A stretch of 64,000 nt of DNA from Lytechinus pictus (taxonomy: Eukaryota). Where the stretch lies: NCBI RefSeq assembly GCF_037042905.1, contig NC_087245.1, positions 5,954,001-6,018,000 on the forward strand, written 5' to 3'. The translations under genes were made by a program, and so were the position numbers. Below, piece after piece: positions 25,681 to 62,703 of the stretch. The first letter of the stretch is position 1. The number at the start of each line of letters is the position of its first letter. The notes beneath the pieces were generated by a model. The model ran no database searches, had not been told where the DNA came from, and saw only the letters and a list, made by a program, of their open reading frames with translations.

Positions 25681-27562
25681 ATTTATTTCATTCATATCTT
25701 TTTATGTATTAGAATATCTTTATACCGGATAACAAGCTCAGAATGACTGTTTTTCAGCATGGTCATGTTTACATGAAATGGCAATATATACGTAAAAAAT
25801 AAAAGAGTAACTTAAGATCTATACAAATGATTAATGAATTCAGTGACATTAAAATCAGAATTATCACTGACACAAAAACTGCTCAAAGATAACATATTCA
25901 ATTTTTGAGAAATCAGTGAATTTAAAATAGTTATCCTATAGACAACACAATAACAATAAAATATAAACTTAAGTGTATGTTATCATTGAAATAGTAAAGA
26001 ATTCAACAAAATATACGAAGGAAATTAGATGTCTAATAATCATTGAGCATAGCACACTAGATTTAAGTTGAAAATTTACAAAATAAATATCGCTAAGCAA
26101 ATTATTGGAAACTTGTTTGCTTAGAGTACGCATTTTATTATGTGAATATCATTAGTTATAAAATAATGGATAACCCAAATCATTCACACAACCAAGAAGA
26201 GAAAAATATAGTAAAATGGAACACAAATTATTTAATACTAATTATTGAAATAAAACTTCTTATCAATCAATTTGATTGTTTCGATAGTTTGTGCATTTGT
26301 CGTTCCATCGTTTCGCACCCAAAAATCCAAAGCTTGTTTGAAAATTGATAGATGAACAACGGGTGCGACTACATTAAGGCTATTATTATTTCTTGTTGTT
26401 GGCAAGAAAGTATTCTTTTTCTTTCATCAATATTAGTCCTTAACAAGTGTTTTTAAGAGAAATGTTTTGATCAAAATTTCCAGATATGTAACGTGCGGCC
26501 CCTTTTTTGTAATCTATAAATTTTGCTTTTGTTTTTATTAGTAGTATTTCCCCAAACAGGTACTCCATAATCGATGCAAGGTTGTATTCTAGATTTATAA
26601 TGTGTGTCCAATAAAGAAGGACCTAAAATTGTCTTACTTTTCCAAGGGAACGGATCTTGAATCTAATGGATTTGTATAAGTTATTGACGTGAATGTCCCA
26701 TTTAAGATGTTCATGTATTGCAACACCTAAATAACGTATTGACTTAACTTGCTCAATTTCAGTCCCATCAATAAATATTTCATAACTTCATGAGAGCGTG
26801 TTTTTAAAAATATACATTTCGTTTCGTCGACATTTATCTTTAAATGGTTAAGTTTATACCATTCATTAAGGGAATCCATATGTGATTGCAATTTTGAAGT
26901 TATTGTCTCAACATCTTTTCCAGTCTCAAATATATTAACATCATCAGCATAAATTGCTATAACACCAGCCTTAATTGATTGTAAGATATCATTTATAAAC
27001 ATCAATTATAGCGTGGGAGCAATAACTCCTTCTTGGGGTACCCCTACAGAAGTTCTTTTTTGCAGAAAGCTTTCCTTGTGAAAAACAACCTGATTTCTAT
27101 TTTTAAGGTAAAATGAAAACCACTTAATCGTATTTCCTTCTATACCATATTGTTGCATCATAAAGAGAAGAATCTCATGATCTCCACAATCGAAACATTT
27201 CGATGTATCTAAAAAAAAACATGCTCCTGTTTTTTTTTTCTTTTTCATTAAATGCACCAAGAAGTTCATCAATGACTGCAGACACGTAGCCTTTGAGTGG
27301 TGTGGTGGGAACGCATGCTGATGAGATTGTGTGTAAGGAGATATCGGAGTAATTGCCCTTGAATTTCCTTTTCTATTATTTTAGAGATGTGACTCAAGAC
27401 ATATATTGGGCGATAGTTTGCTTTTTCATTCCTTGGGCCTTTTCCTTTATAGATTGGAGTGGTGATTGCCAATTTCCAGTCTTCTGGTACATCAGCACAT
27501 TGTATAAAGATATTTAAAAAGAAAATGTAATCAGAAGAGACTTGATTTAAAACAGGTCTCAA
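25680..27562 (-). mobile_element. 5'-truncated, decayed CR1-group LINE (RT region and 3' tail)
   Basis: ORF fragments contain WKLAITTPIYKGKG, NYRPI, FLDTSKCFD, GVPQ and IYADD. Frameshifted, with an A-rich tail at ~25680. Confidence 0.9.
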
Positions 27563-28299
27563 AGGTTCTTTTAATCCTTTAGTTCCTGTTTCGTTATTTC
27601 ATCTATGTATATTTTTATATGTGACTTTTGTAAAAAACGATTGTAAATATCATATGAATAAATAAAGTCCCTCTTATGAGGATTAAAGAGAAAAAAAATA
27701 AAGATTGGTGAATATACTTTATGGTGCTGCTATTTGAAGTAATCTTGAATCAAATCCTAATACATCAATATTACTTGTTTTATCTAAATATTAAGTATGT
27801 TCTCTTCTTTCAATGTTTGCCCAAGCAGGGTGTCATAACATCTAGATACGCCACTGTCCGTATGTCATGTGATAGAAATTCCATAAAATGCCATTTTCTG
27901 AGATTTTTTTTAATCTGCGCATTCAGAGAGTGTATACTCTTTTTCATAACCGACTATTTGAGAAAAATGTCTTTAGTCATCATGAACAAATTGCAATTAC
28001 TTGATATTTCATTTCATTTCATTTCGTTTGTTTCCTACGTTAACAATATAATGGTTTTTTTTTCTTTTTTATGTACGTACAAAAACATATAGCCGATATT
28101 GTCATACAAACAGGCAAGTTTTTTTTTACCGATCTTAAGAATTGTAAGTGAATTAATAGATTGATAGCTTCAATATAACTTTTCGTATAAGGTGCTCCTT
28201 TATGAAATTCCCAGAATTTGGATTTGGAGTGCCTGGGGTACTTATTACATCATCGAAAATTACTATGCCTATATCCAATATTCATATAGAAATGACCTG

Positions 28300-29030: not shown

Positions 29031-32000
29031 TATATACCGTTACACATCTAGCAGGAAAGAAATCAGTTGTTTTGATTCACCTTCCAAATATATTATAGAC
29101 CATGACTTAGAAAGTTTTTGGAATGCAACAGAATACAATACATGCTGATGTTCCCACGTGAACAATTAAACCACTCGGTAGTTCATGCATGGAAATCTGA
29201 CAAAAGTTCCTAATGAAATATAGAATTATGGGTCATTGTCAAGAAGAAGACACAAAAGAAATCATATTTACCAACTGGGTGTGGAGGGGTTAGAGCGCAT
29301 TGAAAGAGAGTTCTTTCCTTTCAACTGAATATTCTGTGTATATAGTAACAGGCTGAGATCCCACGTGACAACTCTTCCCTAAAAAACGAAAATGGTATAT
29401 AGGTACCCAACAGTTTACAGGAGTCGTTAAACTATACATAATCAGTCAAACATAACCGTAACGAATAACACACACGCCTGATTAATATACAAATAATCAT
29501 GGGATTTGCTACTCATTGCTTACCATATTCGTCCTAATTAAATTCTGTAACTTTTTCAGTCACAATATATATATGAGTTAGAAGACAGTTTCAAAAGTAT
29601 TACTATAATCGATTTACCATGCTCACTTTTCTGGTATTTATATGTTTTTTTTTTAATTTAAGGTTGATTCATATAGTGTTATGTAAATTTATTAAATGAA
29701 TAAAAATAGCACACTACTTAACACAGAATAGTAATCACTTCGTTATAATCAGAATTAACTTTGAACAAAGTTCCTGAGATTTTCTTTCCTATCAACTAGT
29801 TCCAATTCCTCAAACTCATACTAAAGATCTATCTTAAATCAAGGATTGAGGTCAATCTCATTCTGAGTTTGATTTGACATGTTTGAAGCTATCGCAACTG
29901 TTTGCAAGACGGACCCAAAATGTTTCATTAACCGATAAATGGTACTCTGAAATCAACCCCAGTAGAAGTCTATCCAAACCTCAATTTTGTTGGGAGAAGA
30001 GACAACGAAATCTTTCCGAAGTCGATCAAAGAATATGGAAGTTATAATTTTTCAAAGTTTTTATAATATGACGTCACATGGGAGCAGACCTTTCCTTTGT
30101 CATTTGCTGTTAATTGCATCAAATATCCATTTTTATTAGTTAATGGTGATAGGAATTTTAAAGAATTGTCCTTACAGGAGTGTATGTACAATAAGGTGTG
30201 TGATAATTCATTTAAATCTTCATGGAAAAATGTCAATTAATACAATTTTATATTTGCTAAGACATGATGGGAGCTGATAGGAGGTGACATTATTAGATTA
30301 AACGTTTAAAAACTCTTCATTCTGTTTTCTTTGGGTTAATTTCAACAACCTTTCGACATTCTGTGTCTTTTATTTTTCCGATTTTATTAAACCAAAGGTA
30401 CTGAACTTTACCATGTTCACCTTCAATGAATGTATTATTCTCATCTCCAGGGGACCGATTCAGAAAGGAATTAAAGGCCACCGCACACCTTACGACTGTT
30501 CGCGATCCGATTTTGGAACGAATCGCATTTTGCTCATTTTGTCATGGTTTAGGGTCTGTTTTCTTCATAATAAATTACATTTCTTGCCTTATATCATTGT
30601 TTAGAAATTTCTGAAAGTGTGTAGAAAATCATCCTCATAGTGTATTAGTCAGATTGATGTCATTATGGTTTTCGCCTTTTCGATCATTAGCATATGGGGG
30701 TGGGGGTATTCCAAAACGTGTCATTGTGCGTATTCTAAACCAGAGCCAAGTGTTCATCCTTCAGAATTCTAGATCAAGAATAAGAAATCACACAATAGTT
30801 CTGAATTCTGAATTAATGGGTCATTACCAAGAGAATAGAACTCAAAAGTATAGATTGCTTGCCAGGAGCATGAAGAGGAAGTATACTGAAAATGTTATTT
30901 AAAAGATGACATGAATGTTATCGTATTGCTTTTAGGTCCCTTTCGCTTCAGCCTGAATGGCGGGTTTAACGTATTTGAATTATGCGACATTTGAATTCTA
31001 TTTCATTTATAAGTAATAATGGGGGTTACAATATTTTCATGATTTTTTTCTAAGGAAAATGTTTTGTTAAAATTTTTGAGGAAATAGTGCTTTAAAGCGC
31101 AAACCAAATAAATGTTCATGTCAAACTGTAAAATGGATGGCCTTATGCAGTTTTTTTTTCTTGGGAAGGCAAGACGCCTCAAACTTTTCGAAACAAATTG
31201 AAATCTCGGGAGCGAAGCGACCGATCATAATTATATCGGGGGAGGTTTTGCACTTTAGATTTCGTGCTTACTTTTTGTAAATTGTGAAAATGTTCAGTAA
31301 AGATGAAAGTTTTCGAATGAAAGAGGAAGGATTTCAATACTCTGTAAAGTATTATCCGTGGAAAGATATTTGATGAGTGTTACATGGATATCAAATGCAT
31401 CCTATACAGATTACCATCAGATGAACATTCAACTGTATAGGATTGTGTGGTTTGCGCTCATCATGTCCTCTCCATAACCATTGATTCCTGTGTTATCATG
31501 AGATCGCTTGCATCGAATGATGTTGACTGATTTCTGATTTGGCTAACCAACAACATAACCAGTGGCCATGGCCCAAGCCCCCCCCCCCCCACCTTTCTAA
31601 ACCGCAGTGGAATAGACATTACATGGTTATTGTACCTGAACTATCTCAGAACCATGAAACCATCGATGTAAAGCTTATTATTGAAAGGATTATTAACTTG
31701 CCGCAAACATAAATATAAGTTTTATTCAGAAGAGGCGACGAGGAAGAACAAGTACTTTATCACGTAAGATATCACTTTATGAACATCCATGTTCATGCTT
31801 TGTCATGCTGATAAATAATAGTGAAACAGGGCTATTGGTATTTTGCTCACTCATTCGCCCCACTCGTATGCACATAATCAAGTTATGACACCAATGTGTA
31901 AATTTTCAACATAAGAACTTACTATTCCTTAAGGTTATCATATTTTACGTTTTCGTTCTGTTGGTGGAAATTGAAAATAGTTTGACATCTCTTCTTCAAG

Positions 32001-32559
32001 TAAAATCTCCAATCAAAACTTACCCAAATGACTCTCCTAACTTTTGAAAGGTAGTTTTTTACCTTCAATACGTGCTCACTAAAATATATGATGCCACAAT
32101 TTAAAAATTACATTTTGACACAGACATGAGTTGATTAAAATGGGTGAAGGAACATTCCTGCTGATAATTTTGTTTCTAGTTTAATGCGTTTTCTGTTAAT
32201 TGCATTATTTAGTGAAGGTGGCGACCAATTGGCATATTCTTTGCCCACCGCCCATGGTGTGAAATCTGTGATTATGCTAAAATTTTGACAATCCATTTGG
32301 GTTTTTTTACACAAAGTTTGGTCATTTTCCACTTCTTTTCATCATTTACTTGAACATTTCAACGTATTTGCTTTAGATAATGCACTCAATCAGAATTTAT
32401 AATAAGCTGTAACTAAATATTTCTCAATTCAATAATAGCGACACTTGTCATGTATCATTTAAAACAAATAATATACTGATATCAATACATTGGGTCATTC
32501 TTATGAAATTTACTTATAATGCTCTGAAATTTTTTGTACAGATCCGAACCAAAACTTGA

Positions 32560-33648
32560 TATTATAAAGCACTTGTTGTTACCATGAAGGGGATAGGCGA
32601 TTAACTAAAAAGTTTATGCGAGCGCGTAGCGCGAGCTCAAAAAGTTTTATTATTCCAACCCAAAACAGGACATTCTAAGGACTTTTGTGACCATGAACAG
32701 GGTGGGTATCTATCTGAACAATTGAATCGAGCGCGAAGCGCGAGCTAAAAAAAATATAGATTTTCTGACCTAAAATTTTGACATTCTAAGCACTTTTGGT
32801 CATCTTGAGTAGGATGGGCATCTAACTAAGTAGTTCATGCGAGCGCGTAGCGCGAGCTAAACATTTTTTTATTCCAACCCAAAACTGGACATTTTAAGCA
32901 CTTTTGCGACCATGAACAGGATGGGTATCTGATGCGAGTGCGAAGCGCGAGCTGAAAATTTTTGGTGATCTGACCTAAATTTTGGACATTCTGAGCACTC
33001 TTAGTAATCATGAACAGAATGGCTATCTAACTTAACATTTCATGCGAGAGCTACATTTACTTTGAATTTAAAAGTGGATAGACCTATTCTAAGCTTCATG
33101 GTATCCATGGTGAGCAGATGACTACATCTCACTTAATATGGAATATGAGCGCGAAGTGTGAGCGAAATTTTCTTTTTTATGTAATTTCACGATATTTTTT
33201 CCCATTTTCCAATTATTCCCTCCCCTTATTTTATTCACATTTCTCTTTTTATTATTATCTTGCTCTCTTCTTTCATTTTTTTTAAACATTATTTTCTTCT
33301 TCGTGGTGCGAAAAAAACTTTTTTGTTGGTTGTCTAGTTTTTCTGAAATAAATCGAATTGGGAGCGAGTTTAAAATTTGTTTATTTTTCACAGTAAAACT
33401 TTCATTTTTTACTATTCTTCATTATATAGGTTTTAAGATTTCTTTGTTTTAGCTGTTAGGTTTACCTGCTATCTTTTTCCTCCTCCTTTCTTCTTTTCTT
33501 TCTTTCTTTCTTTCTTCCTTCATTTCTTTCGTTCTTTCTTCTTTCTTTTTTCCTTTCTTTCTCCATTTCTCCTTTCCTTCCTTTTTTGTCTTTCTCTCAT
33601 TTTCCTCCTGAAGGGGATGTGTCCCCCCCCCCCGCTTCCGCCGCCTAT
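32560..33648. repeat. ~110-bp tandem array (gcgagcgcgWagcgcgagct core) in a MITE-like element
   Basis: Core motif at about 32618, 32728, 32839, 32934, 33044 and 33148. The same core occurs inside the hAT-like elements. C-rich end at ~33648. Confidence 0.75.
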
Positions 33649-33714
33649 TACTTTGCGCATTGCAAAAAACAAGGGTCCTTGCCTGCAGAGTAGGCATTGC
33701 TAGAGTATTGTGAT

Positions 33715-34050
33715 AGGGGTTTACTTCCAATTCGTCTAATAAAAATTCGTCCAATTGCCAACTCGTCTTCTATCATTTGGTCTACCATCAGTTCGTCCAC
33801 TATCCACATGGACTAATTGCCAATTCTTCCACTCATCCTTTCGTGTAATAACCAGTTGGTCCACTAGCCATTTAGTCCATATACCATTTGGTCTAATTGG
33901 ACTAAGTGTTAATTGTGCAAAATGACTGAAAATGAAATGGATATTTTACCAAACGATTATGAGACGAAATGGTCTTAGACGAAACGGTGATTAGACGAAG
34001 TGATGATTGGACCAAATATTTATCGGACGAAGTTGTTGTTAGACGAGATG
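33715..34050. mobile_element. Foldback element built from ~17-bp motifs
   Basis: Left half repeats caWttcgtcYaMt and right half repeats the complement tagacgaaatgg. Confidence 0.6.
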
Positions 34051-36595
34051 TTGTGTGTGTATGTGTGTGTCATATCAATAGAGGCTGGTATATTATATCA
34101 TAATATTCATAGCTCTGCGCCACAGTGCAATTACCAAACAAAATATATATTGCTGGTATTCAGGGAGAATTAACTCGTTACTCAATGTTTGGTTGAATGA
34201 ATTCATCGATATTACCAGCAGCGCAACATTTCTCGAAATAATGTACATGATAAATCCCATCAATATTATTACATTCGAATTATAAGATAACTATGCAGTG
34301 ATTGACCGTCACACCCTATGACCAGAAATGCTATCATTCTTTGATCGAGAACTTTAATGCTTTTGACAACATGAAAGAAAAAAAAGACATATGTAACGGC
34401 TCACACTTTGCAAACCGATCAAATACCCGTAATATTCTTTCATGAAATTATACTATAAATTTTGGAATGCCTTACACTTTGCCCAGTATCGACTAGCCCT
34501 TCGTTTGATCAAGACATACATTATGTTACTATCCATTATTTTTCTTTTACAAACCTTTTTTATCATTATCATAATTATTAAGCTGAGTTATTTTGTTATT
34601 GATGTTTCGTATACCAATATCTTTGCTACTCTTGTTACCATCATTAATATTATTATTATCCGTATTTCTATCATCGATATTCATAATCATCATCATCATC
34701 ATCATCATTATCATCATCACCACCATCACCATCTTCATCATCCTCATCATTAACATTTTAACTGTTGCTATTATTTTCATTATTGTTGTTATCGTTACGA
34801 AAAACTATTATATATTTTTTTTTCAAGTTTTTTTTTATTTCCCTCCGATAGGGCATATATTTGCATAAACATTTTAACAATTATATAATTGACATAATAC
34901 CAAGCATATCATACACACTATTATATTTAATGTTCTTACGTGGGTCTCAATGTATTCATTACAAACAATAGTCAATAAGTGTATGGGACACTCTAAGCAT
35001 TTTTAAAAATAATTTACATGAAATAGTATTTTGCATGCAAGTTGTGAATGGTAATTTCCTTTTTATTGTTTTTTGTTACTTTTCTGTTTTTATCATAATT
35101 CTTGTTTGTATATGCATATACAAATTCATATATATAGCTCCAGGGTCAAGGTTGTGAACTGACAGTCCTAAATAATATGTGCGTCGTCAGGACAACACAG
35201 GTGTGGAAAATAAACGGATCTAATTACACAGTTCATATGCCTACGTCAAATATGAATGAGTGACACAATACAATGAATAGAGCTTTCGGGTGGAGTAAAC
35301 TCTTAAGCAAATAATGCCAGGGTCCCAGGGTCGATGCCATTCATAACTTGGTTTCCTTACAGGATAATGCCGTTTGATAAATAATGTGATGACTATAATT
35401 ATAATCAACAAATTATTCCTCGTCAAATAAGTTCAATACTTCTGTCACGTCACATGCCGGACTAAAAACCAGGCGAGGTTCACACCGAAGACAAGTGATC
35501 TACTTTAAAAAAAAGCTCTGTTCATTATTTTTACTTATAGGAGTTAAAGATTAGGAAATGTATTCATACCTTTTTACTTAGTATATTATTCTAAATAAAA
35601 TGTGTAAGCTGGAATGTTTTGAGACCCATAACGTTTTCTAAATTTTTAAAGATTTGATCGATTGATATCTATAACCATGATGGCAATAAAAGAAACACTT
35701 ATACTAGTAGTGATATTAATGATAATAGTAATAATGATGAATGCAGTAAAGATAAAAATATGCATCATCATCACTAAAAATGGCAGTAATACTTAGGCAT
35801 TTCAAATAAAATCACAAGGACTATATCATCGCATAATACATACAAAATTAAGTAAGCAGTGATCAGAGTAATGATATGGCATGGACAGAAATGTAATCAT
35901 GACAAAAATGAAAAGAAAATGTGAATGTTAATAGATAATATTTTGAAGGATTTAAAATAAGTGAATGGGCATTCATCTACTGATTTGAAATTTTTAAAAT
36001 ATAGCGTTCATTAGTTCCCTCGAATTCAGAATAAAGTTTGTATGTTAGTCTGTGTAGTTTAACACGACTTACTATATACATCCACTTTGTTCCAAGAGAC
36101 AGTAAAGTAAAGTATATTAAACGTAATGTTAAGACTTTTGGCACTAGGGCAGAAATAAAAATGAGTGTCCATTGGATGTGTTCTCCTTGCAAGTCCCAAA
36201 ATCAGCGATTCCGACAACTTTTCAAATATATTCTGACATATTATAAGTTTAAATATAAGATATACATATAACATTTAAAAAGTATCCATAATTCATATGT
36301 ATTGATATTATACTACAAAATAGGGGATAGTTATGGGGAATAACAGGAATTAGCAACATTAATTGTGTTATCAAAGCTAATAATCATTTTTAGGAAAGAA
36401 AAGCAGTGAAATAATAACAAATATTAACCAAATGGCCATCACATCAAAATGGGTGTCTACACATTATTGATAAGATAAGACCTAAAGATTATACATGTAT
36501 GTATTGTTGGTATATCGTTTCATGTAACTATTTAAATTCATTACTAGATTATTTGAGAGTGTGTGCCTCATAACGGTTATGGTATGAAGGATACA

Positions 36596-36635
<40 letters not shown>

Positions 36636-36868
36636 AAAACCGATTTTACATCAAATAAATGAAATATCTGCGTATTTTTGTCTTGATCATAATAATAATT
36701 AAAAAACGTTCATTGACCACTACATATTTGTAATATTAGAATGTGTGATGATCATATTCAGGTAAAACTAACTTTACTGACCTTTACTAGGGCTTTGGAC
36801 GAGATTTAAGATGGCCGAAGTAATAATACATCATGATATATCGGCAAATGCTTGGATTCGTTGTTCTG

Positions 36869-37134
36869 GGCCCCGTCTTACAAAGAGTTACGATTGATCC
36901 AATCAATCGTAACTATGGAAATCCATCAGTGTCGTAATTTTTCTACTGGAAATTTGCAAAATGTCCTTTGTAAACAAAGGAAAACACACCAAATTTTCAA
37001 GAAATCAATTACTTTATGGATATACATTCATATCTAGAACAATTTTTGAAAAAATGCACTTCATATGTTGACTTTGCTGGCTTTTTATAGTTGCAATTGA
37101 TCAGATCAATCGCAACTCTTTGTAAGACGGGCCC
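36869..37134. mobile_element. CWG-target MITE
   Basis: ctg|ggccccgtcttacaaagagtt ... aactctttgtaagacgggccc|ctg. Confidence 0.8.
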
Positions 37135-46684: not shown

Positions 46685-47041
46685 CTGTGAAAGTAAGAAT
46701 AATACATAGAGAGAGTATTAGTTTGAGTATTTCATTTGGGGGTAATAAGCAGCACTTCACTTAGACTACAAAAACAATACAATACAATAAAGTAGAATAT
46801 CACACAAATGTAATTAATAACGGCAAACAGTATTATGCTGCACAACGCTTCATTCCAGAACGGGGGGAACGAATGTGGAACATGACTGAAGGAGGAAAAG
46901 AAGAGGAATAAGACGATGATAATGATAATAACGATGATGAAAAATAAAGGAGAAGATGATGATGAGAAGATATGGGAAGAGATATATTATATCATATTAT
47001 ATAATCTATTTCCGACGCGAGCTTTGCTATATGGGCCCTAA

Positions 47042-48243
47042 CAATGGCGTAACTACGGGGTGCATGGGGGCACGTGCCCCCCCCCCCCAATCGGCTGGTA
47101 AAAAAATATATAAATAAAAACGGGGAAAAGGAGAAAAGGAAGGAGAAAGGAAGAGAAACGTTAGTGGGAAAGAAGAATTATTGTTCATTATGATGTTATA
47201 TTACATTATAATTATGTTATATTACATAAGAAACATTTTTTTTCGTAACTTTATGAAACATAATTTGCTCAGGACCTATATGTCTTCATTGTTCTTGGTG
47301 ATCGCATTGTCTGTTCAACGAGATATATAATCCTATTGTACTAAAAATCTACCGTTTTCAAGTCAATTCTCGCACTTCGAGTTATTGTTTTATGTAGTGA
47401 CATATGTTTCTTTGTCATGACTACTTAAAGTGATTGCCCCATTTTAAGATCTTAATATAAAACATTTCCTGTCCGTGCTTACGTTCGCATTAGTGGATTA
47501 ATGAGATATGTCTGCTCTTCATGAATTCCTAAAATCAGTCCTTGAAATGTCCCTTTTTCTGTTCTGAATATCAAAACTTTTCAGCTCGCGCTTCGCGCTC
47601 GCATCGTTTGGTTAGTGAAAAAATACGACGTCTTAGTGAATTCATACAAACACGCCTTAGAATGCCCCTTCTCAGGTCTGAATTTCCTAAATTTTCAGCT
47701 CAGGTTTCGCGCTCGCAATATTGAGATGAGTATGAAAATCCTGATTACAATGACTTCATAAAGTGCTTGTGTTTTCATGTAATTCTAACAAAATCAGCAA
47801 GCGCTTGATATTCGCATTAGATGGCAATGGTGAGATATGTATATTCTTAATGGATTCTTAAAGTATAGTCCTTAAAATGTTGCAATATATTATACTAAAA
47901 ATTCAGCTCGCGCTTTGCGCTCGCATTGTTTGTTTAGCGAGACAGGTACGTATCATGATTACACAAACTTGCTTATAATGTCCCTTTTTTAGGTATGAAT
48001 ATCAAAAATTTTCAGCTCGCGCTCCGTGCTCGCATTATTTTATCAGTGAGATACATATCCGTTTAATTGCACTAACCTTAAAATGCCTCTACCTGGCAAC
48101 TGAGAGCGCTTTGCGCGCTCACTAATACCGTGTTTACATGTGATGATCGGCTTTTGGTTCTGAACCAAAAGCCGATCACATGTAAACACGGTATTTTTGC
48201 TGGTGCCCCCCCCCCCAATGCCGTGACCCACGGTACGCCTATG
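47042..48243. mobile_element. ~1.2-kb non-autonomous hAT-like element in AIG1 intron 5
   Basis: TIR caatggcgta / tacgcctatg, 8-bp duplication ggccctaa / gaccctaa. Reverse-complement homolog of 60660-61823. Confidence 0.85.
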
Positions 48244-51544: not shown

Positions 51545-51870
51545 ATTCATTAATATTCAATTAGCAAATTGATAATGCCACATCCCCACTTGTTCTTAAC
51601 TTAAATCTTATTATATGAAATTATTTTTATTCAAATGTTGTCCTCCAAGAATAAAAACATGGATTGACAACTGATTTAAAGCATCAGCTATTCATTATTG
51701 CATTTTATTTTCTTACAAGGGAGACACACACTTGTATCGAAATCTGAAATAATTATGATTTCATGTTATAACATAATGAAAATGAAAGTGGGGATATGAC
51801 ATCATCAGCCCAATTAATGAATATTCATGACAATGTGCGTATATCTGGTAAATTGCTAAACTTTAGAATT
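51545..51870. repeat. Uninterrupted copy of a common AT-rich interspersed repeat
   Basis: Collinear with the pieces at 60100-60186, 60603-60659, 61824-62010 and 62580-62610. A related copy lies at ~2460-3010. Confidence 0.7.
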
Positions 51871-54389: not shown

Positions 54390-56873
54390 TTTGAATGGGA
54401 AGTAGTGTAGAGATTATCAATGTTGTCAACATGTTAATCAAGTACTTTGTCTTATTATGCAAACAGGCTTCATAGTCTGATCTCAAGTCCCGAGGTCATT
54501 GCAGAAAAATTAATCCTATCATCTGGTTCGATCTCTTCGGAAATATGAAATGCAAAGAATAATTGGGCCTAGAGATGACATCACGCGCTTGCTCAATGTA
54601 TATTTATGAAAACATGCATAACAATTAATAACTTTTTTTTTTGGTCCGATTTTCATTGTTTTGTTTTTCTGATTTTGCAAGATCTGTTCAAATCACATTA
54701 TTTCATCCTGGAGCCCCCCCCCCCCCCCTTAAATCAAGCGGGAGTATAGAGTACAGAAATCAATATCATGACACATTATCCCCATCCCACCCTCTCTGTA
54801 TCCGAATCTGATCTGAGACATTGAGAGGTTTTTGATGGAAATACGTGTCAGCTAGCTACTGAGGATAGGAAATGCACTTCGATCAGTAAATAGACTTGAT
54901 CTTGTATTGACCTTCATTGCCTCCATGGGACAGTCATTCTCATCGTAAGTTTATAGTGACAAATGAATAAAAAGATTAGATACAGGCCGATCTCAGGGGC
55001 AACCACCTTCTATCATGTCTATTGGTGTGTTGTAGGTTCGCAGTTTAGAAACATCATGTTACTGAATACACGTATCAGTCAATAGAGAAAAATTACGTCA
55101 TCCTTAGGTTGTCGTGCGCCCCCCCCCCCCGCCTTATTCGAAATACCTAGTGACGCACCTGGGTAAACTAAACACATAAACTATATGGGAACACTATGGA
55201 GTTATGAAAAAGTAAACATGTGCACTCGTTTATTGATTTCCCACCAGGTTATCTCTTTTTCAGATGATTATTAATTGCTCTGTTCAAGAAATAATATTTA
55301 CAGTTTTGCACTGAAATCTGATTATCAATACTTTTGGGGGGCACTATCTTACACCAATTAAGGAAACAATTAAAAAGAAAGGGCAGTGCAATTGAGAGGG
55401 TTACAATCCTGCTAAATATAACACACATCACACTTAAAATGATTTTTCTTTTGGTACAGCGTTGTGCCAAATTAGGCAGGCATTTATAAAAATGTTGAAA
55501 GGTTTGAAAAACGGAAATCCCCAAAATATATAGAACCAATATTGAAAAAGAAATAATATAAATGTGCTAACAGAATTATAATGACAGAAACATATCAACA
55601 AATCAACACAGGAATATGTAAAGCAGGAAAATGGTACCTCTATGGGAAGAATATATATAATTTGTAATTTCTGTTAATAAAAATGAAGAATTATACATAT
55701 TCTTGCAGGGGGAGGAAATCCCAATAACCTTGAGTGTTACGTTACATGACCACGCAAAAACCAGGGATTCGGGGTACGTCCATCCCTCCCCCGGGAAAAG
55801 TTAATTATTGAAGTGTCGACCGTTATTGTACGTAGTAAAACGTTTTTTCTGAGCTAAACCGGTATTTTTTTACTTCCGTTTAGACGACGGAAACCATTAA
55901 AAAGTGGGCACCCTCCGAAAAAGTACATTATATTCTTTTAAATAAATTTTATTACAAGCTTCATTATATTTGTTTTTTTTTATTTGGATGTATTGTCTGG
56001 ATGTGGTGTTGCAGATGAACGTAATACAAAAAGCAATTTTGCTTCTTTAGTTCCTGTGGTTCAAATAGCAGAAAGAAAATGCACCAATATACCCACTAGA
56101 CTGGTTCATGATAATTCATATTTTCTCCGAAGTTTCCGTTGAAGTATAATCTATAATCGTTATATAAAAATATACTTCAATTCAAATAAACATTTATTTT
56201 CTTCCATTTTACAAATGTTTTCATTATTGTAGACATAAATTCATACAAGTATCAGTTTGTCGTGAAGAATGTAAATATGTACATGCTTTATCTATTGTGC
56301 AACACAATTACTTTAACAAAAAAATAGTTATTTAATTATTTGTAATCACCAAATTGGTGGTCTTCCGTGTGGCCCTGTTTGATACCAAGAAATCGAACAC
56401 TTATTTTCACTGATACAATGAATCAAGCAGTGTATATCAGCTCTCGGAACTTACAGAAAATCATGGCACCAACAACCATGACAACGGAAATACGACGAAA
56501 ATATGACGTCATGATCGTCACACACTGTTGTACAATTTTGATAGCAAATGAAATAGCAAAAAAAAAAGATATTTTACGTTCTCACCTAAATGAATTTAAT
56601 TTATACGTTCACTAATTATATTTATTTTAATCATCATTATTTAAAACGATATTTCCGAAATTATTTTGTCATTAACGTCTATTTTCATTTATCATTTCAC
56701 AATTTTGTCAGGTATATTTCCTAAAATTTCTCTTCATGTATGTCATCTGCAGAACAATATCTCTGAAAAATATTATGATTTGCTCAGATAAAGTAAGATC
56801 AGACAAACAAAAAAGTGAAAATTGGAACAAAATCAGACAAGGAAAAACAAAGTTATTTCAATGAAACGCTTCT

Positions 56874-59800
56874 ATGCAAGTAAGTACACCTAATATTTCA
56901 TCTGACTCTTACAAAAATGAGTATGATCGTTGTGCTGTTCTCTTAAATCAAACTAAAGGATTGAGAATCAATGCCTGCAGCTTGTTTGATAAAATGGATG
57001 AACTGAAATTTTTAATCAACAAACTTAATCTTGATGTATTTTCTATAACTGAAACTTGGTTAACTCCGTTTATTGCGAACAGTTCAATTTTGATAGATGG
57101 GTACTCCATATTCTGCCGTGACCGCGCTGATGGTCGCCGTGGAGGGGGTGTGTGTATTTTCACCAAAAACTCATTGTCAATCAACGAACGAAATGATTTA
57201 AATGATAGTACTGTTGAAAGTGTTTGGGTGAACTTAAAAGCACCATCATCTGAAAACATACTTATATGTTGTTTATACAGACCTCCAGATGCAAATAACG
57301 ATTATTTTGAAAGAATGATCGATACATTTGAAAAGGCTTCATCTGAATCGAAAGAAATTTTAATACTTGGAGATCTAAATATTGACTATCCTACCACACA
57401 TCAATGACAGTGTTAACCCTATTAATCTCATTGAAGATATTTTTGCTCTTACTCAAATGATAGACAAACCTACTCGGGTGACGTCTTCATCATCCAAATG
57501 TATCGATCACATCTTATCCTCCATGCCTGAAAAACATGTCATTAGTGATGTTGCCAAAATAAGTGTAAGTGATCATTATCTTGTATTTACTTGTATTAGT
57601 TTTAAGTCTACCATTAATGAACACAAAACCGAACGTTCTCTTAATTATAAACACTTCGATGAAGAAAAATTTATTTCAGCCATTCAAAATTCGGATGTTC
57701 TTAGTAAAAAGGAATATCAGAGTCAATATGTAACTGATGGCACGAATGGAAGGTTGAATTTATCAATATTTGTAATGAGTATGCTCCTATCAAGACAATT
57801 CGCGTAAAGAATAAAACATACCCTTGGATCACACCTCATATTGTGAAGATGATTTATAAAAGAGATTACTTAAAAAATAAATATAATTTACAATATTCTA
57901 ATGAAATTAATAAAGAATATCGTATAATGAGAAATCGTATTACTGATCGCATTAGAAAAAATAAACAGAAGCATTTTAATAATATCACTCATATATAAAT
58001 ATAAGTCAGACTCAAAAACACTTTGGAAAGAATTGCAAAAAGTTACAAATAAAAATGTTAACTCAGAAAGTTGTAATATTGACTGCAATGTTATAAATGA
58101 TTATTTCACTAATATAGGCAAAGAGATATCTAAGATTTTTGATAATTCATACATTCTAGATTGGAAACACCCCAAATGTATTCGAACTTTTAAAATTGAA
58201 CCAATTAAATCTTAAAAAATACTAAACTATTTGAGTTGTCTTGATACTAGCAGTCATCTCGACATACTGGATTTCGATACTAAGTTACTAAGACTTGCTG
58301 CTCCCTATATATATGAATCTCTATGTTCTATTTTTAATGCTAGTCTGTTCACAGGTGACATACCCTGTGATTGGAAGATTGCCCGCACTACCCTGTATAC
58401 AAGGGCAAGGGGAACAAAGATGACATTACAAACTATCGCCCTATATCTGTAGTATGCCACGTATCTAAAATGATAGAACAAATTGCAATTATTAAAATAT
58501 CTTAAAGAGAACGATATGATCAATGTCGATCAATATGCATTTCTCCCTCACCATTCTACTATCACCTGCCTTCACAGGGTAATTGATGATTTTCACGAAG
58601 CTCTTAACAATAAAGAATTAATTGGCTCATGCTTTCTTGACATTTCTAAATGTTTTGACTGTGTTAATCAAGAATAACTCTTGCTTAAACTAGAGAAATA
58701 TGGTATTTATGACAAAGAATTAAAATGGTTTTCTAACTATATTACTGAAAGAAAACAACTTGTTTCTTCAAAAGGTACAAACTCCTCTATAAAGGAATTA
58801 CCAGTAGGGGTACCACAGGGCAGTGTACTCGCTCCTGTTCTATTTTTTATTATTTATTAACGATATATCAGAAGGCCTTAATAATGCTGTATATGTTCTA
58901 TTTATGCTGATGATGTAGTTATTTATGTTACTGGCGATAATATACATAATGTTACTCTAAATTTACAAAATACGGTAAACACACTAGACAACTGGTATAA
59001 GAGAAATCGTCTTAAGATAAATGTTAGTAACACGAAGACAATGTTAATTTCTACAAAGTCAACAGAATGTCTTAATAATATCTATATTGATAATGAACTC
59101 ATAGAGCAAGTTCATTCTATCAGGTATTTGGGCATTATTATACATGAAAATTTAAAGTGGAATGACTATTCAACTGAAGACACTTATGCAAATCAACTGC
59201 TTACAAGATTTACTACCTTGGCAAATTAGCAAAATTTTTATACAAAACTTTAATTTATATATATCGTCTATACAACCATGCCTTGATTATGGTGTCTCAG
59301 TATGGGGCAACTGCCCCAACAAACTAAAATTACCCTTATTGAGACTCCAAAAAAGAGTGGCCCGTCATGTAACCTCTAACTATGATTACAATACAAATTC
59401 AGGTCTTCACTTAATGAACAAACTTTCCTGGCAAACGATTGATGATCGCCGTGATTACTTTCTATCAACCCTAATGTACCAATATGTTCACGCCCCATCC
59501 CGATTACATGGATTATGCAATGAAATGTACTTCGACAGGCATGGATTGAACACTCGTTATGCTAGCTCCCTTAACCACCAAAACAACTCTTTTGTCAATC
59601 TTTTAAATATGCCGGTGCCAAAGTATGAAATAAATTACCCACAAATTTCCAAAATGCTCAACCCTTAGATGTATTTAAGTCTCTAAACAAAAAATCTAAA
59701 TCTAATATGTCATAATAATCCCATCCCTGAACTTATATATTTTCAGTAATTTACATTACAATTTTATTCTGTCTATCATTATTCACAACTTTCAGCCCCT

Positions 59801-60659: not shown

Positions 60660-61823
60660 CAGTGGCGTACCGTGGGTCACGGCTTTGGGGGGTACCAGCA
60701 AATATTTTGTGTCACTTAGTGAGCGCGCTTTTCGCGTGCTCAGCTGCCAGGTATAGGCCTACTGACCTAATGATCTAACAGAGACATTTTAAGGACAGTG
60801 CTATTAAACTGTTATGTATCTCACTGATTAAATAATGCGAGCGCGAATTTTGGAAATTCAGACCTGAAAAGAGCCATTTAAAGGCTTGTTTGTAGGAACT
60901 CACGAAGGCCATACGTATTTCACTAACCAAATGATGCGAGCGCGAAGCACGAGCTAAATTTTTTTGTATATATTGACCCCAAACATGGATATTTTAAGGA
61001 CTATTTTTAAGGAATCAATTAAGAGTATATATATCTCACCATAGTCATCTAATACGGGTGCCAAGCGCTTGCTGATTTTGTTAGAATTACATCTAAACAC
61101 ATGAAGCACTTTTTGTAGTCATTGTAATCATGATTATCATATTCACTAATCAAACATTGCGAGCGCGAAGCGCGAGCTGAAAACTTTGGACATTCAGACC
61201 CGAAGAGGGGCATTCTAAGGCTTGTTTGTAGGAATACACTTAGACCATACGTATATCACTGAACAAATTATGCGAGCGCGAAGCGCGAGCTAAAAATTAT
61301 GATATTCAGATCAGAAAAGGGGACATTTTAAGAACTGATTTTAGGCATTTATGATGAGCAGACATATCTCACCAATCCACTAATGCAAACGTAAGCACAG
61401 AAAGGAAATGTTTAACATTAAGACCTTAAAATGGGGCAATCGCTTTAAGTAGTGATTAAAAAGAAGCACATGTCACTAATAAAACAATAACTCGAAGTGC
61501 AAGGAAATATGTTTGGTGTATATTGACTTGAAAACGGGAGGTTTTAGTACAACAGGATCATATATCTCGTTAAACAGACTATGCGAGCACCAGGAACAAT
61601 GAATACATAGGCCCTGAGCAAATTATGTTTCATAAAGTTATGAAAAAGATGTTTCTTATGTAATAAAACATTACATAATTATAATATAACATTAAAATGA
61701 ACAATAATTTCTTCTTTCCCACTACGTTTCTCTTTCTCCCTCTTCTCCTTTTCCCGTTTTTTTTGGCCAGCCAATGGGGGGCACGTGCCCCATGCCCCCC
61801 CCCCCCCCGTAGTTACGCCACTG
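60660..61823. mobile_element. ~1.2-kb non-autonomous hAT-like element
   Basis: Perfect TIR cagtggcgta / tacgccactg, exact 8-bp duplication ttaagtgc, and internal ~110-bp gcgagcgcgaagcgcgagct repeats. Confidence 0.9.
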
Positions 61824-62017
61824 TTAAGTGCATTAGATATTCACAGCATCAACTTATTATATAATTTTGATAGGGAGACATGTCATACAAACATGTATGA
61901 AAATATGAAATGATTACGCTTTTTAATATGTAACAACATAACAAATAGGAAAGTGGGGATGTGACATCATTAGCCCACCTAATTAATAATCATGACAATG
62001 TGCATATATATACATAT

Positions 62018-62357
62018 ATTGTGAAATAAATGAATGAAGAGAACAATGGTTTTCCCAGAGCTATCTGCCCTTTGGAAAAATTGGTGATGCCGAAAAAATG
62101 TCTCCGCCGGGAATCGAACCCGGACCCCAGCTTTGAACGCCGGTGCCTTAACCACTAGACCACATAGACGGGTTAGTGGCTCGGGCGACCCCGACCCGAT
62201 TGACCGTCAGATAAACAGATTTTCGACGCCACCAATTAACTTTCCTATGTCGGGTGTAGGTGAGTATTGAACAATGACAAGCCGCTATGCCTCAGCTGGA
62301 TCAAAGCTATTGCTTAGATACAGTACATGTATGGGACAAATTATACAAATGTGAGAC

Positions 62358-62363
<6 letters not shown>
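62018..62363 (-). mobile_element. TA-flanked insertion cassette carrying a tRNA-like gene
   Basis: Flanked by TA-rich sequence (short tata run on the left, long (TA)n on the right), ends gtgaaat / atttcat, and absent from the uninterrupted host repeat at 51545-51870. Confidence 0.65.
62099..62169 (-). tRNA. tRNA-like cloverleaf, anticodon TCA (opal); either a pseudo-tRNA or a suppressor-like Pol III unit
   Basis: GTCTATG TG GTCT AGTGGTTA AGGC A CCGGC GTTCAAA GCTGG GGT CCGGG TTCGATT CCCGG CGGAGAC A then TTTTTT. Box A and box B are intact and all four stems pair, apart from one acceptor-stem mismatch. Confidence 0.7.
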
Positions 62364-62400
<37 letters not shown>

Positions 62401-62528
62401 TATATATACTGTAAAGAAATTGATGAAGAGATCATTGATCTCCTCATCCATTTCTTTACAATATTTAAATAAAAGAGTTACCAAAGCTGTTGTACATGTA
62501 TAACTTTACACATATGTATACATTATAT

Positions 62529-62579
<51 letters not shown>

Positions 62580-62703
62580 TCTTTTTCATAAAATATTGCT
62601 TAAGTTTATAATTTGATATCTTTGTTATGTGTTATCAGATTTTGATGGAATTTACGGCATTTGCTGTGTGAACTTTGCACCTTTTTCAGATATAATCACT
62701 TTC

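Follow-up and report, generated by a model that had tools for sequence, protein, structure and literature searches.

An Internal tRNA-Like Module with a UCA Anticodon in a High-Copy Repeat of Lytechinus pictus

The Locus and Its Repeat Unit

Near one end of the window, the whole 64,000-nucleotide stretch of Lytechinus pictus DNA that was analyzed, lies a tRNA-like cloverleaf with a UCA anticodon. The cloverleaf sits in the interior, as the middle module, of a single diverged copy of a ~400-bp repeat that is present in high copy number, and the parts of this copy are collected in Table 1. A unit length of 400–405 bp is estimated by adding together the unit body, the remainder contained in an adjacent inverted fragment, and the bases missing from the window copy. 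Members of the family reach from ~62016 to beyond 62345, and the tRNA module is therefore internal; family sequence extends for at least 170 nt upstream of it, in RNA as well as in DNA-type runs.

Table 1. Features of the repeat copy and its insertion site (window coordinates)
Feature	Position	Strand	Description	Evidence
Repeat unit body	62016–62345	-	Window copy ~14–19 nt short near 62050 relative to the family RNA	One-strand depth ~10,000–37,000 over 62028–62345; insertions; loose ends
Leader	62170–62245	-	Diverged antisense copy of tRNA module and trailer that lacks the anticodon arm; forms the 5′ strand in the predicted rod	
tRNA-like module	62099–62169	-	7/5 fold; anticodon TCA at 62136–62134; box A and box B; discriminator A	ARAGORN; Rfam RF00005, 47.6 bits
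Trailer	62074–62098	-	Pairs with the leader start and closes the predicted rod	Pair probabilities mostly 0.94–1.0
T6 run, Pol III terminator-like	62093–62098	-	Traversed by the abundant long RNA with no depth step; partly paired in the predicted rod	
Terminal segment, copy 1 (32–33 nt)	62016–62048	-	Closes the unit at its 3′ side (RNA sense); adjoins a short TA-rich run	Aligned with copies 2 and 3; target of go-back joints
Terminal segment, copy 2	62406–62438	-	Orientation as copy 1	
Inverted fragment	62433–62520	+	Terminal segment copy 3 (62433–62464) plus ~55-nt unit remainder; ~30-bp near-perfect palindrome with copy 2	
(TA)n tract	62363–62408		Separates unit body from palindrome	
(TA)n tract	62512–62576		Outer end of inverted fragment	

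In the sense of the family RNA, the inverted fragment (62433–62520) sits 5′ of the unit, and the outer ends differ. When compared by eye, the loose ends of RNA reads behind 62335–62336 match the inverted piece 62520–62465. The two opposed terminal segments also form a near-perfect hairpin of ~30 bp at 62404–62466 that draws sub-threshold Rfam miRNA matches, and both copies stop at a common position in the unit, possibly a preferred end.

Parts of 62030–62340 are contained in 20 listed public runs from 11 studies under four organism labels, and four runs were aligned to 61830–62345 at 80% likeness. Run X1 of organism A holds pieces identical to the window copy over 62146–62225 and 62196–62316, and organism A is thus probably the window's own species. 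DNA-type runs of two further organisms were rich in relatives, with 6,419 aligned contigs in X3 (organism B) and 1,521 in X17 (organism D), many of them 83–95% alike; the relatives of the leader and tRNA module in organism D share ~83–87% identity. This family-wide occurrence bears out a preliminary description, made from the letters alone, that had called the element mobile. Within the 64-kb window, no second copy of the tRNA module was found (a single box B match, and none by blastn), and pattern scans for family members returned 0 matches in viral, metagenome, and genome contig collections.

Several other features share the window. A short dispersed repeat (61901–62009 and 51740–51844, 80% identity) adjoins the element and served as a symmetric RNA control. 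A ~1-kb dispersed repeat with ~110-bp subunits and a palindromic, GC-rich core occurs at 47039–48090 and 60780–61826, and also at 32567–33174, in opposite orientations and with 74–90% identity. Broken LINE-type fragments at 56865–59668 (plus strand) and 27006–27598 (minus strand) retain pieces of an APE-type endonuclease (PF03372) and a reverse transcriptase (PF00078). Finally, two Ser/Thr/Glu-rich open frames on the minus strand (167–694 and 923–1693), with no Pfam family, are probably exons of a mucin-like protein; for the 923–1693 frame, no homologue was found among longer proteins at E up to 0.001, and Atlas gave only low-complexity look-alikes under 0.9.

The tRNA-Like Module

With default settings, ARAGORN reports the module as the sole tRNA gene in the window, labelled SeC from its anticodon, and Rfam RF00005, the sole Rfam match in the 64-kb window, scores it at 47.6 bits with E 4.6e-07, where the gathering score is 29. 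By these two matches the cloverleaf lies beyond chance expectation. Its geometry agrees throughout with what had been described: a 7-bp acceptor stem with an A.G mismatch at 5:68 and a U.G pair at 6:67, a 4-bp D stem with an 8-nt D loop, a 5-bp anticodon stem with the loop GT-TCA-AA, a variable loop of 3 nt, a T stem of 5 bp without mismatch, box A and box B of consensus type, and T6 (62098–62093) directly after the discriminator A. When isolated, the 71-mer folds as a cloverleaf, with a stability no greater than that of shuffled sequences (z −0.38; 63 of 200 shuffles fold equally well). A match to mascRNA was rejected, its 22.6 bits standing against a gathering score of 42.5.

The defects in the cloverleaf belong to the window copy and not to the repeat family. 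Among RNA reads, the family majority restores C5-G68 (27,444 of 27,805 reads) and U6-A67 (35,982 of 36,595), so that the majority letters give a fully paired acceptor stem. Similarly, the short variable loop in the earlier account is correct for the window copy, at 3 nt, whereas the family majority has 4 nt (31,817 of 35,721 reads).

The module was also rightly set apart from tRNA-Sec, of which it lacks five of six features. As described in the available text of Santesmasses et al. 2017 (PMC5330540), eukaryotic tRNA-Sec is 90–101 nt long and has a 9/4 fold in which the acceptor and T stems add up to 13 bp, a variable arm of great length, a 6-bp D stem with a 4-nt loop, and G73. The module shares only the UCA anticodon, and differs in its 71-nt length, 7/5 fold, 4-bp D stem, variable loop of 3–4 nt, and A73.

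In the window, ARAGORN and Rfam give no second tRNA or rRNA match, and this bears on a nuclear copy of mitochondrial tRNA-Trp(UCA) as another conceivable source. Animal mitochondrial tRNA-Trp has a UCA anticodon and a short variable loop, both of which fit. Against such an origin are the canonical, nuclear-type D and T loops, the 59% G+C, the repeat context, and the occurrence of TCT in place of TCA elsewhere in the family, and its probability is close to negligible.

An Abundant, Strand-Specific Family RNA

RNA of the family was examined in run X23, a stranded, rRNA-depleted library of organism A with 151-nt reads; about 6 in 100 of this one run, from one study, was read. In this portion, 76,582 of 8,710,588 records (0.88%) align to 61830–62345, all but ~1,000 of them on the repeat unit, placing the family RNA among the most abundant non-ribosomal species of the sample. 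Depth over the tRNA module is 30,000–37,000 with the first mate on the plus strand and 9–33 on the opposite strand; in bin 62136–62153, for example, it is 35,718 versus 26. The RNA is assigned to the minus (tRNA-sense) strand on the assumption of the usual library orientation, and the folding asymmetry described below backs the assignment. The neighboring dispersed repeat (61928–62008) provides an internal control, with a depth of 396 versus 397 in bin 61956–61973. The strand ratio is 1,358 for the unit and 1.0 for the neighbor, and the unit's depth is ~90 times greater.

Symmetric depth of the kind seen in the control repeat would be expected from passive read-through or from DNA. A neutral satellite holding a tRNA pseudogene, spread by recombination and transcribed by passive read-through alone, is accordingly hard to reconcile with the strand ratio and depth of the unit, or with RNA letters that are mostly 97–99.9% uniform at majority sites inside it. 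Such a satellite would agree with a window copy that differs by 5–15% from most RNA reads and yields almost no RNA, and an inverted duplication alone would create the rod predicted below; on balance, we regard it as very improbable. Only 7 of the 76,582 reads are at least 99% alike to the window copy, so the window locus yields almost none of the RNA. The suggestion that the element is possibly transcribed therefore holds for the family, abundantly and on one strand, while the window locus itself gives next to none.

A stand-alone tRNA gene with its own terminator, as had also been proposed, does not emerge from these reads. The abundant RNA begins at least 170 nt upstream of the module and continues through T6, across which depth is continuous (mean 37,091, then 35,016), and no step marks the tRNA 5′ end (27,805 reads at 62165 and 24,397 at 62182). 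Depth troughs at 62226–62243 and below 62063 are sites of indels between the window copy and the family. No common molecule ends appear in the X23 table, and no dominant RNA end lies within 62016–62345. Moreover, 18,429 of the reads extend past the ends of the aligned stretch 61830–62345, and six listed joints, together supported by at least 1,750 reads, go back by 304–341 nt and thereby cross the unit boundary. Such go-back joints have depth 0 in three contig runs. At least two length variants of the unit can be seen in the RNA, with either ~33 nt or ~60 nt between 62345 and 62024 (loose ends at 62335–62336; joint 62345–62024).

Taken together, the lack of a dominant end and the 1,750 boundary-crossing reads leave three forms for the RNA: circular, multimeric and long, or linear and monomeric with ends in the ~55 nt outside the alignment. 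Reads that cross the boundary fit a circle and tandem read-through alike. We tentatively favor a circle, which falls somewhat short of an even chance; a long multimer transcribed from head-to-tail arrays is a serious possibility, and a linear monomer with its ends in the ~55 nt outside the aligned stretch is more doubtful.

A Predicted Rod

The 75 nt upstream of the module, termed the leader, align antisense to the tRNA module and trailer with a score of 43, as compared with 20.4 ± 4.0 for shuffled sequences, none of 2000 scoring as high. In keeping with this arrangement, the minus strand of 62245–62066 is predicted to fold into a long rod of −76.5 kcal/mol (shuffles, −56.1 ± 4.3; z −4.8, 0 of 500), and the plus strand reaches −55.5 kcal/mol (1 of 500 shuffles). 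In the window copy the rod contains 52 Watson-Crick and 10 G-U pairs along with 5 mismatches, and its apical loop starts at tRNA position 1. When the cloverleaf is forced on the same stretch, the predicted energy is −63.9 kcal/mol as against −76.5 for the rod. Pairing probabilities in the predicted ensemble do not exceed 0.01 for the acceptor, D, and T stems, and the anticodon hairpin alone survives; the rod is thus predicted to hide the tRNA shape except for the anticodon arm. Farther downstream, around 62046–62071, the family RNA appears to form another long hairpin beyond the rod, once the bases missing from the window copy near 62050, read by eye from loose ends, are added.

The letters of the family are compatible with the rod. 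Eight majority substitutions in organisms A and B fall in the rod region, of which six are at rod-paired sites, one is at a site paired in the cloverleaf only (62165), and one is unpaired; all six at rod-paired sites convert a wobble or mismatch of the window copy to a Watson-Crick pair. Of five differences in organism D at rod-paired sites, three keep the pair through a one-sided change (62225, 62229, and 62106, the last taken from a loose-end consensus), while 62189 breaks a pair and 62228 stays mismatched. No two-sided compensatory change was found among 40 of the 129 variants. Thus, the predicted rod would belong to the family, and selection on it is weakly shown. The cloverleaf, too, is perfected by the majority letters (the one at 62165 mends the cloverleaf alone), which the rod model does not require, and a fully paired cloverleaf in the family majority leaves room for a role of the tRNA shape. 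SINE RNAs can give up a cloverleaf for long stems.

The Anticodon

Within organism A the anticodon is nearly uniform. In X23, T>A at 62134 (anticodon position 36) occurs in 19 of 35,986 reads, and positions 34 and 35 show no variant among the rows listed. Elsewhere it changes: in organism D the anticodon is TCT (28,477 of 28,896 in summed contig depth), and TCT is also present in 23 X3 contigs of organism B (1,268 of 413,366). Hence, conservation of TCA across copies is upheld within the RNA of one organism and fails in another. The UCA anticodon is likely a passenger, and its change between lineages is better read as drift of master copies than as selection for the reading of UGA, because the position changes while the remaining module stays.

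These observations weigh on the idea that the module is a working opal-suppressor or decoy tRNA, either made by Pol III from boxes A and B to T6 or released when RNase P and RNase Z cleave the long RNA, that reads or blocks UGA. A fully paired acceptor stem and 4-nt variable loop in the family majority, a T>A change confined to those 19 reads, and intact boxes followed by T6 would all suit such a tRNA, and a 75-nt RNA would be lost in a library of the X23 type. Against it speak the TCT anticodon that organism D and a minority of organism B contigs carry, cloverleaf stems at or below 0.01 in the long context, and the lack of a depth step at either tRNA end. Position 32 of tRNAs is usually a pyrimidine, and G32 in the window module is a further point against it. 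In addition, the available text of Santesmasses et al. considers it very unlikely that UCA predictions of this sort, made in animal genomes rich in repeats, are correct tRNA-Sec (PMC5330540). An opal-suppressor-like or decoy tRNA, as offered in the preliminary description, is therefore not borne out and is given a very slim chance; its companion suggestion, that the module acts as a structural RNA more than in translation, fares well, as a structural role fits better than decoding.

Structure could conceivably serve the host. A domesticated non-coding RNA, for instance a stored decoy with a protein-binding, exposed anticodon hairpin, might account for the high abundance, for the ~83–87% identical relatives of leader and module in organism D, and for a predicted rod from which only the anticodon arm protrudes. 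Yet the anticodon is not conserved, the copies lie scattered and in decay, and nothing points to a host partner; domestication appears slimmer still.

Comparison with Known Elements

Among known systems, the metazoan non-LTR retrozymes (Cervera and de la Pena 2020, PMC7229834; Li, Clavereau and Pollet 2026, 10.64898/2026.07.22.740005) come close. As presented in the available text of these papers, they share with the unit a non-coding, tandem organization in the 150–450-bp range, a very abundant RNA with a strongly self-paired predicted fold and boundary-crossing reads, and a proposed dependence on Penelope-like elements. A circular monomer RNA is a further mark of retrozymes, and for the RNA of the unit it is one of the candidate forms. 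Unlike the window unit, in which none was found and a tRNA module with its antisense copy is present instead, retrozymes are described there as carrying a type I hammerhead in each unit. Rfam lists 14 matches with E values up to 5 on 61830–62600, none of them to a ribozyme of the hammerhead, HDV-like, twister, or related families, and a hammerhead core-motif scan of both strands found no core in correct order, in a copy that lacks ~14–19 nt of the unit, read only by eye. In its workings the element resembles the metazoan non-LTR retrozymes, yet it falls outside that group, since no hammerhead was found. The available text of the two retrozyme papers makes no mention of echinoderms.

A second set of likenesses is found in Penelope-like elements (PLEs). 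According to the text available for Craig et al. 2021 (PMC8557442), insertions of such elements go into (TA)n, can be partial tandems, adjoin a truncated copy in inverted orientation, and carry a 30–40-bp tail, and head-to-tail non-autonomous derivatives exist. As portrayed there, the insertion units of EN+ PLEs, Naiad, and non-autonomous Chlamys elements such as MRC1 resemble the repeat unit in their (TA)n target, repeated 30–40-bp end, neighboring inverted truncated copy, head-to-tail units, and lack of a canonical hammerhead, a close though inexact fit. The unit differs from the elements of that account in having no reverse transcriptase (RT) or GIY-YIG frame, in its unmatched outer ends, and in its tRNA module.

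Helenus and Cassandra (TRIMp3; Kojima 2024, PMC10886601) likewise place a piece of a small-RNA gene inside a non-autonomous retroelement, with possible tandem arrays and a likely Pol III promoter role, as outlined in the text available. There, Helenus is described as having two tRNA-bearing LTRs around a PBS and PPT, with a 4-bp target duplication in animals; the window unit, by contrast, has one tRNA between 32-nt repeats in (TA)n, with no PBS, PPT, or 4-bp duplication seen. The family-majority cloverleaf is intact, whereas that of Helenus is said in the same text not to fold as a tRNA (PMC10886601).

The sea urchin SINEs SURF1 and SINE2_SP, as characterized in the available text of PMC3747384, are likewise dispersed repeats with A and B boxes of tRNA origin, and differ by description from the unit, whose tRNA is internal and followed by T6. 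The module might be the head of an ordinary tRNA-derived SINE of this kind, moved by a CR1/L2-type LINE, as its Pol III boxes, the high copy number, the LINE fragments in the window, and the listing of tRNA-derived SINEs for sea urchin in that text (PMC3747384) would allow. Opposed to this are the 170 nt or more of family sequence upstream of the tRNA and present in RNA, the T6 immediately after it, the head-to-tail joining of units, and the ends in (TA)n with a repeated 32-nt segment; a SINE origin is thus most unlikely. The tRNA-derived SINE class was set aside on the ground that the tRNA is not at the element's 5′ end, and the identities of Helenus, canonical SINE, and tRNA-Sec were all rejected for the element. 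A literature search found no publication on a sea urchin element of this type, for which a Repbase-type catalogue entry may nevertheless exist.

A Proposed Mechanism of Spread

The best explanation, which we hold to be probable, is a non-autonomous, Penelope-dependent tandem retroelement, retrozyme-like, with a tRNA module and without a hammerhead, and not a suppressor. The unit likely spreads into (TA)n by way of a borrowed Penelope-type reverse transcriptase. Supporting a Penelope connection are the (TA)n flanks, the repeated 32-nt end, and the adjacent inverted fragment, all features as given in the available text of PMC8557442; against it, the inverted fragment lacks the matching outer ends of the textbook PLE figure. 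No Penelope-type partner was identified, and the RT fragments in the window accompany an APE-type endonuclease, i.e., they are LINE-like.

In the proposed course of events, an ancestral tRNA-headed RNA would have gained its antisense leader through fold-back at its own 5′ end, an origin suggested by the rod apex, which coincides exactly with tRNA position 1. Transcription would be from a few young master copies, and not from the window locus, and these would supply a stable, end-less RNA. Judged by the intact A and B boxes, Pol III may be the likeliest initiator, and would have to read through T6; were a linear Pol III transcript to begin at the tRNA, its ends should be sharp, and no sharp ends were seen in X23. 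The rod could then protect most of the long RNA from cuts by RNase P and RNase Z, such that the RNA persists as a template, and a Penelope-type RT would insert the family RNA into (TA)n.

In a more specific variant of the same scheme, the element would be a retrozyme without a ribozyme, in which a tRNA-processing nuclease of the host cuts a head-to-tail precursor once per unit and the rod-held ends are ligated into a stable ~400-nt circle. The precursor RNA would transiently form the cloverleaf before the cut, which could be made by RNase P at tRNA position 1, at the apex of the rod, or by a nuclease in the exposed anticodon loop. The resulting circle would reach nearly 1% of non-ribosomal reads and template the Penelope-type reverse transcriptase, and the rod would also lock away a potential UGA-reading tRNA. 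Appealing as it is, this variant is for now unlikely.

Significance

The strand-specific abundance of the family RNA and the predicted rod are new here. Should the reading of a Penelope-dependent element hold, a tRNA module would take the place, in a non-autonomous mobile element, that the hammerhead has in retrozymes, and the question of how ribozyme-less Penelope-type elements make unit-length templates becomes testable. The same reading would also account for a sizeable group of spurious tRNA calls of the "suppressor" or "Sec" type in the host genome. Finally, if a short tRNA were released after all, the animal would hypothetically carry many UGA-reading tRNA genes, with a bearing on selenoprotein decoding and on termination.
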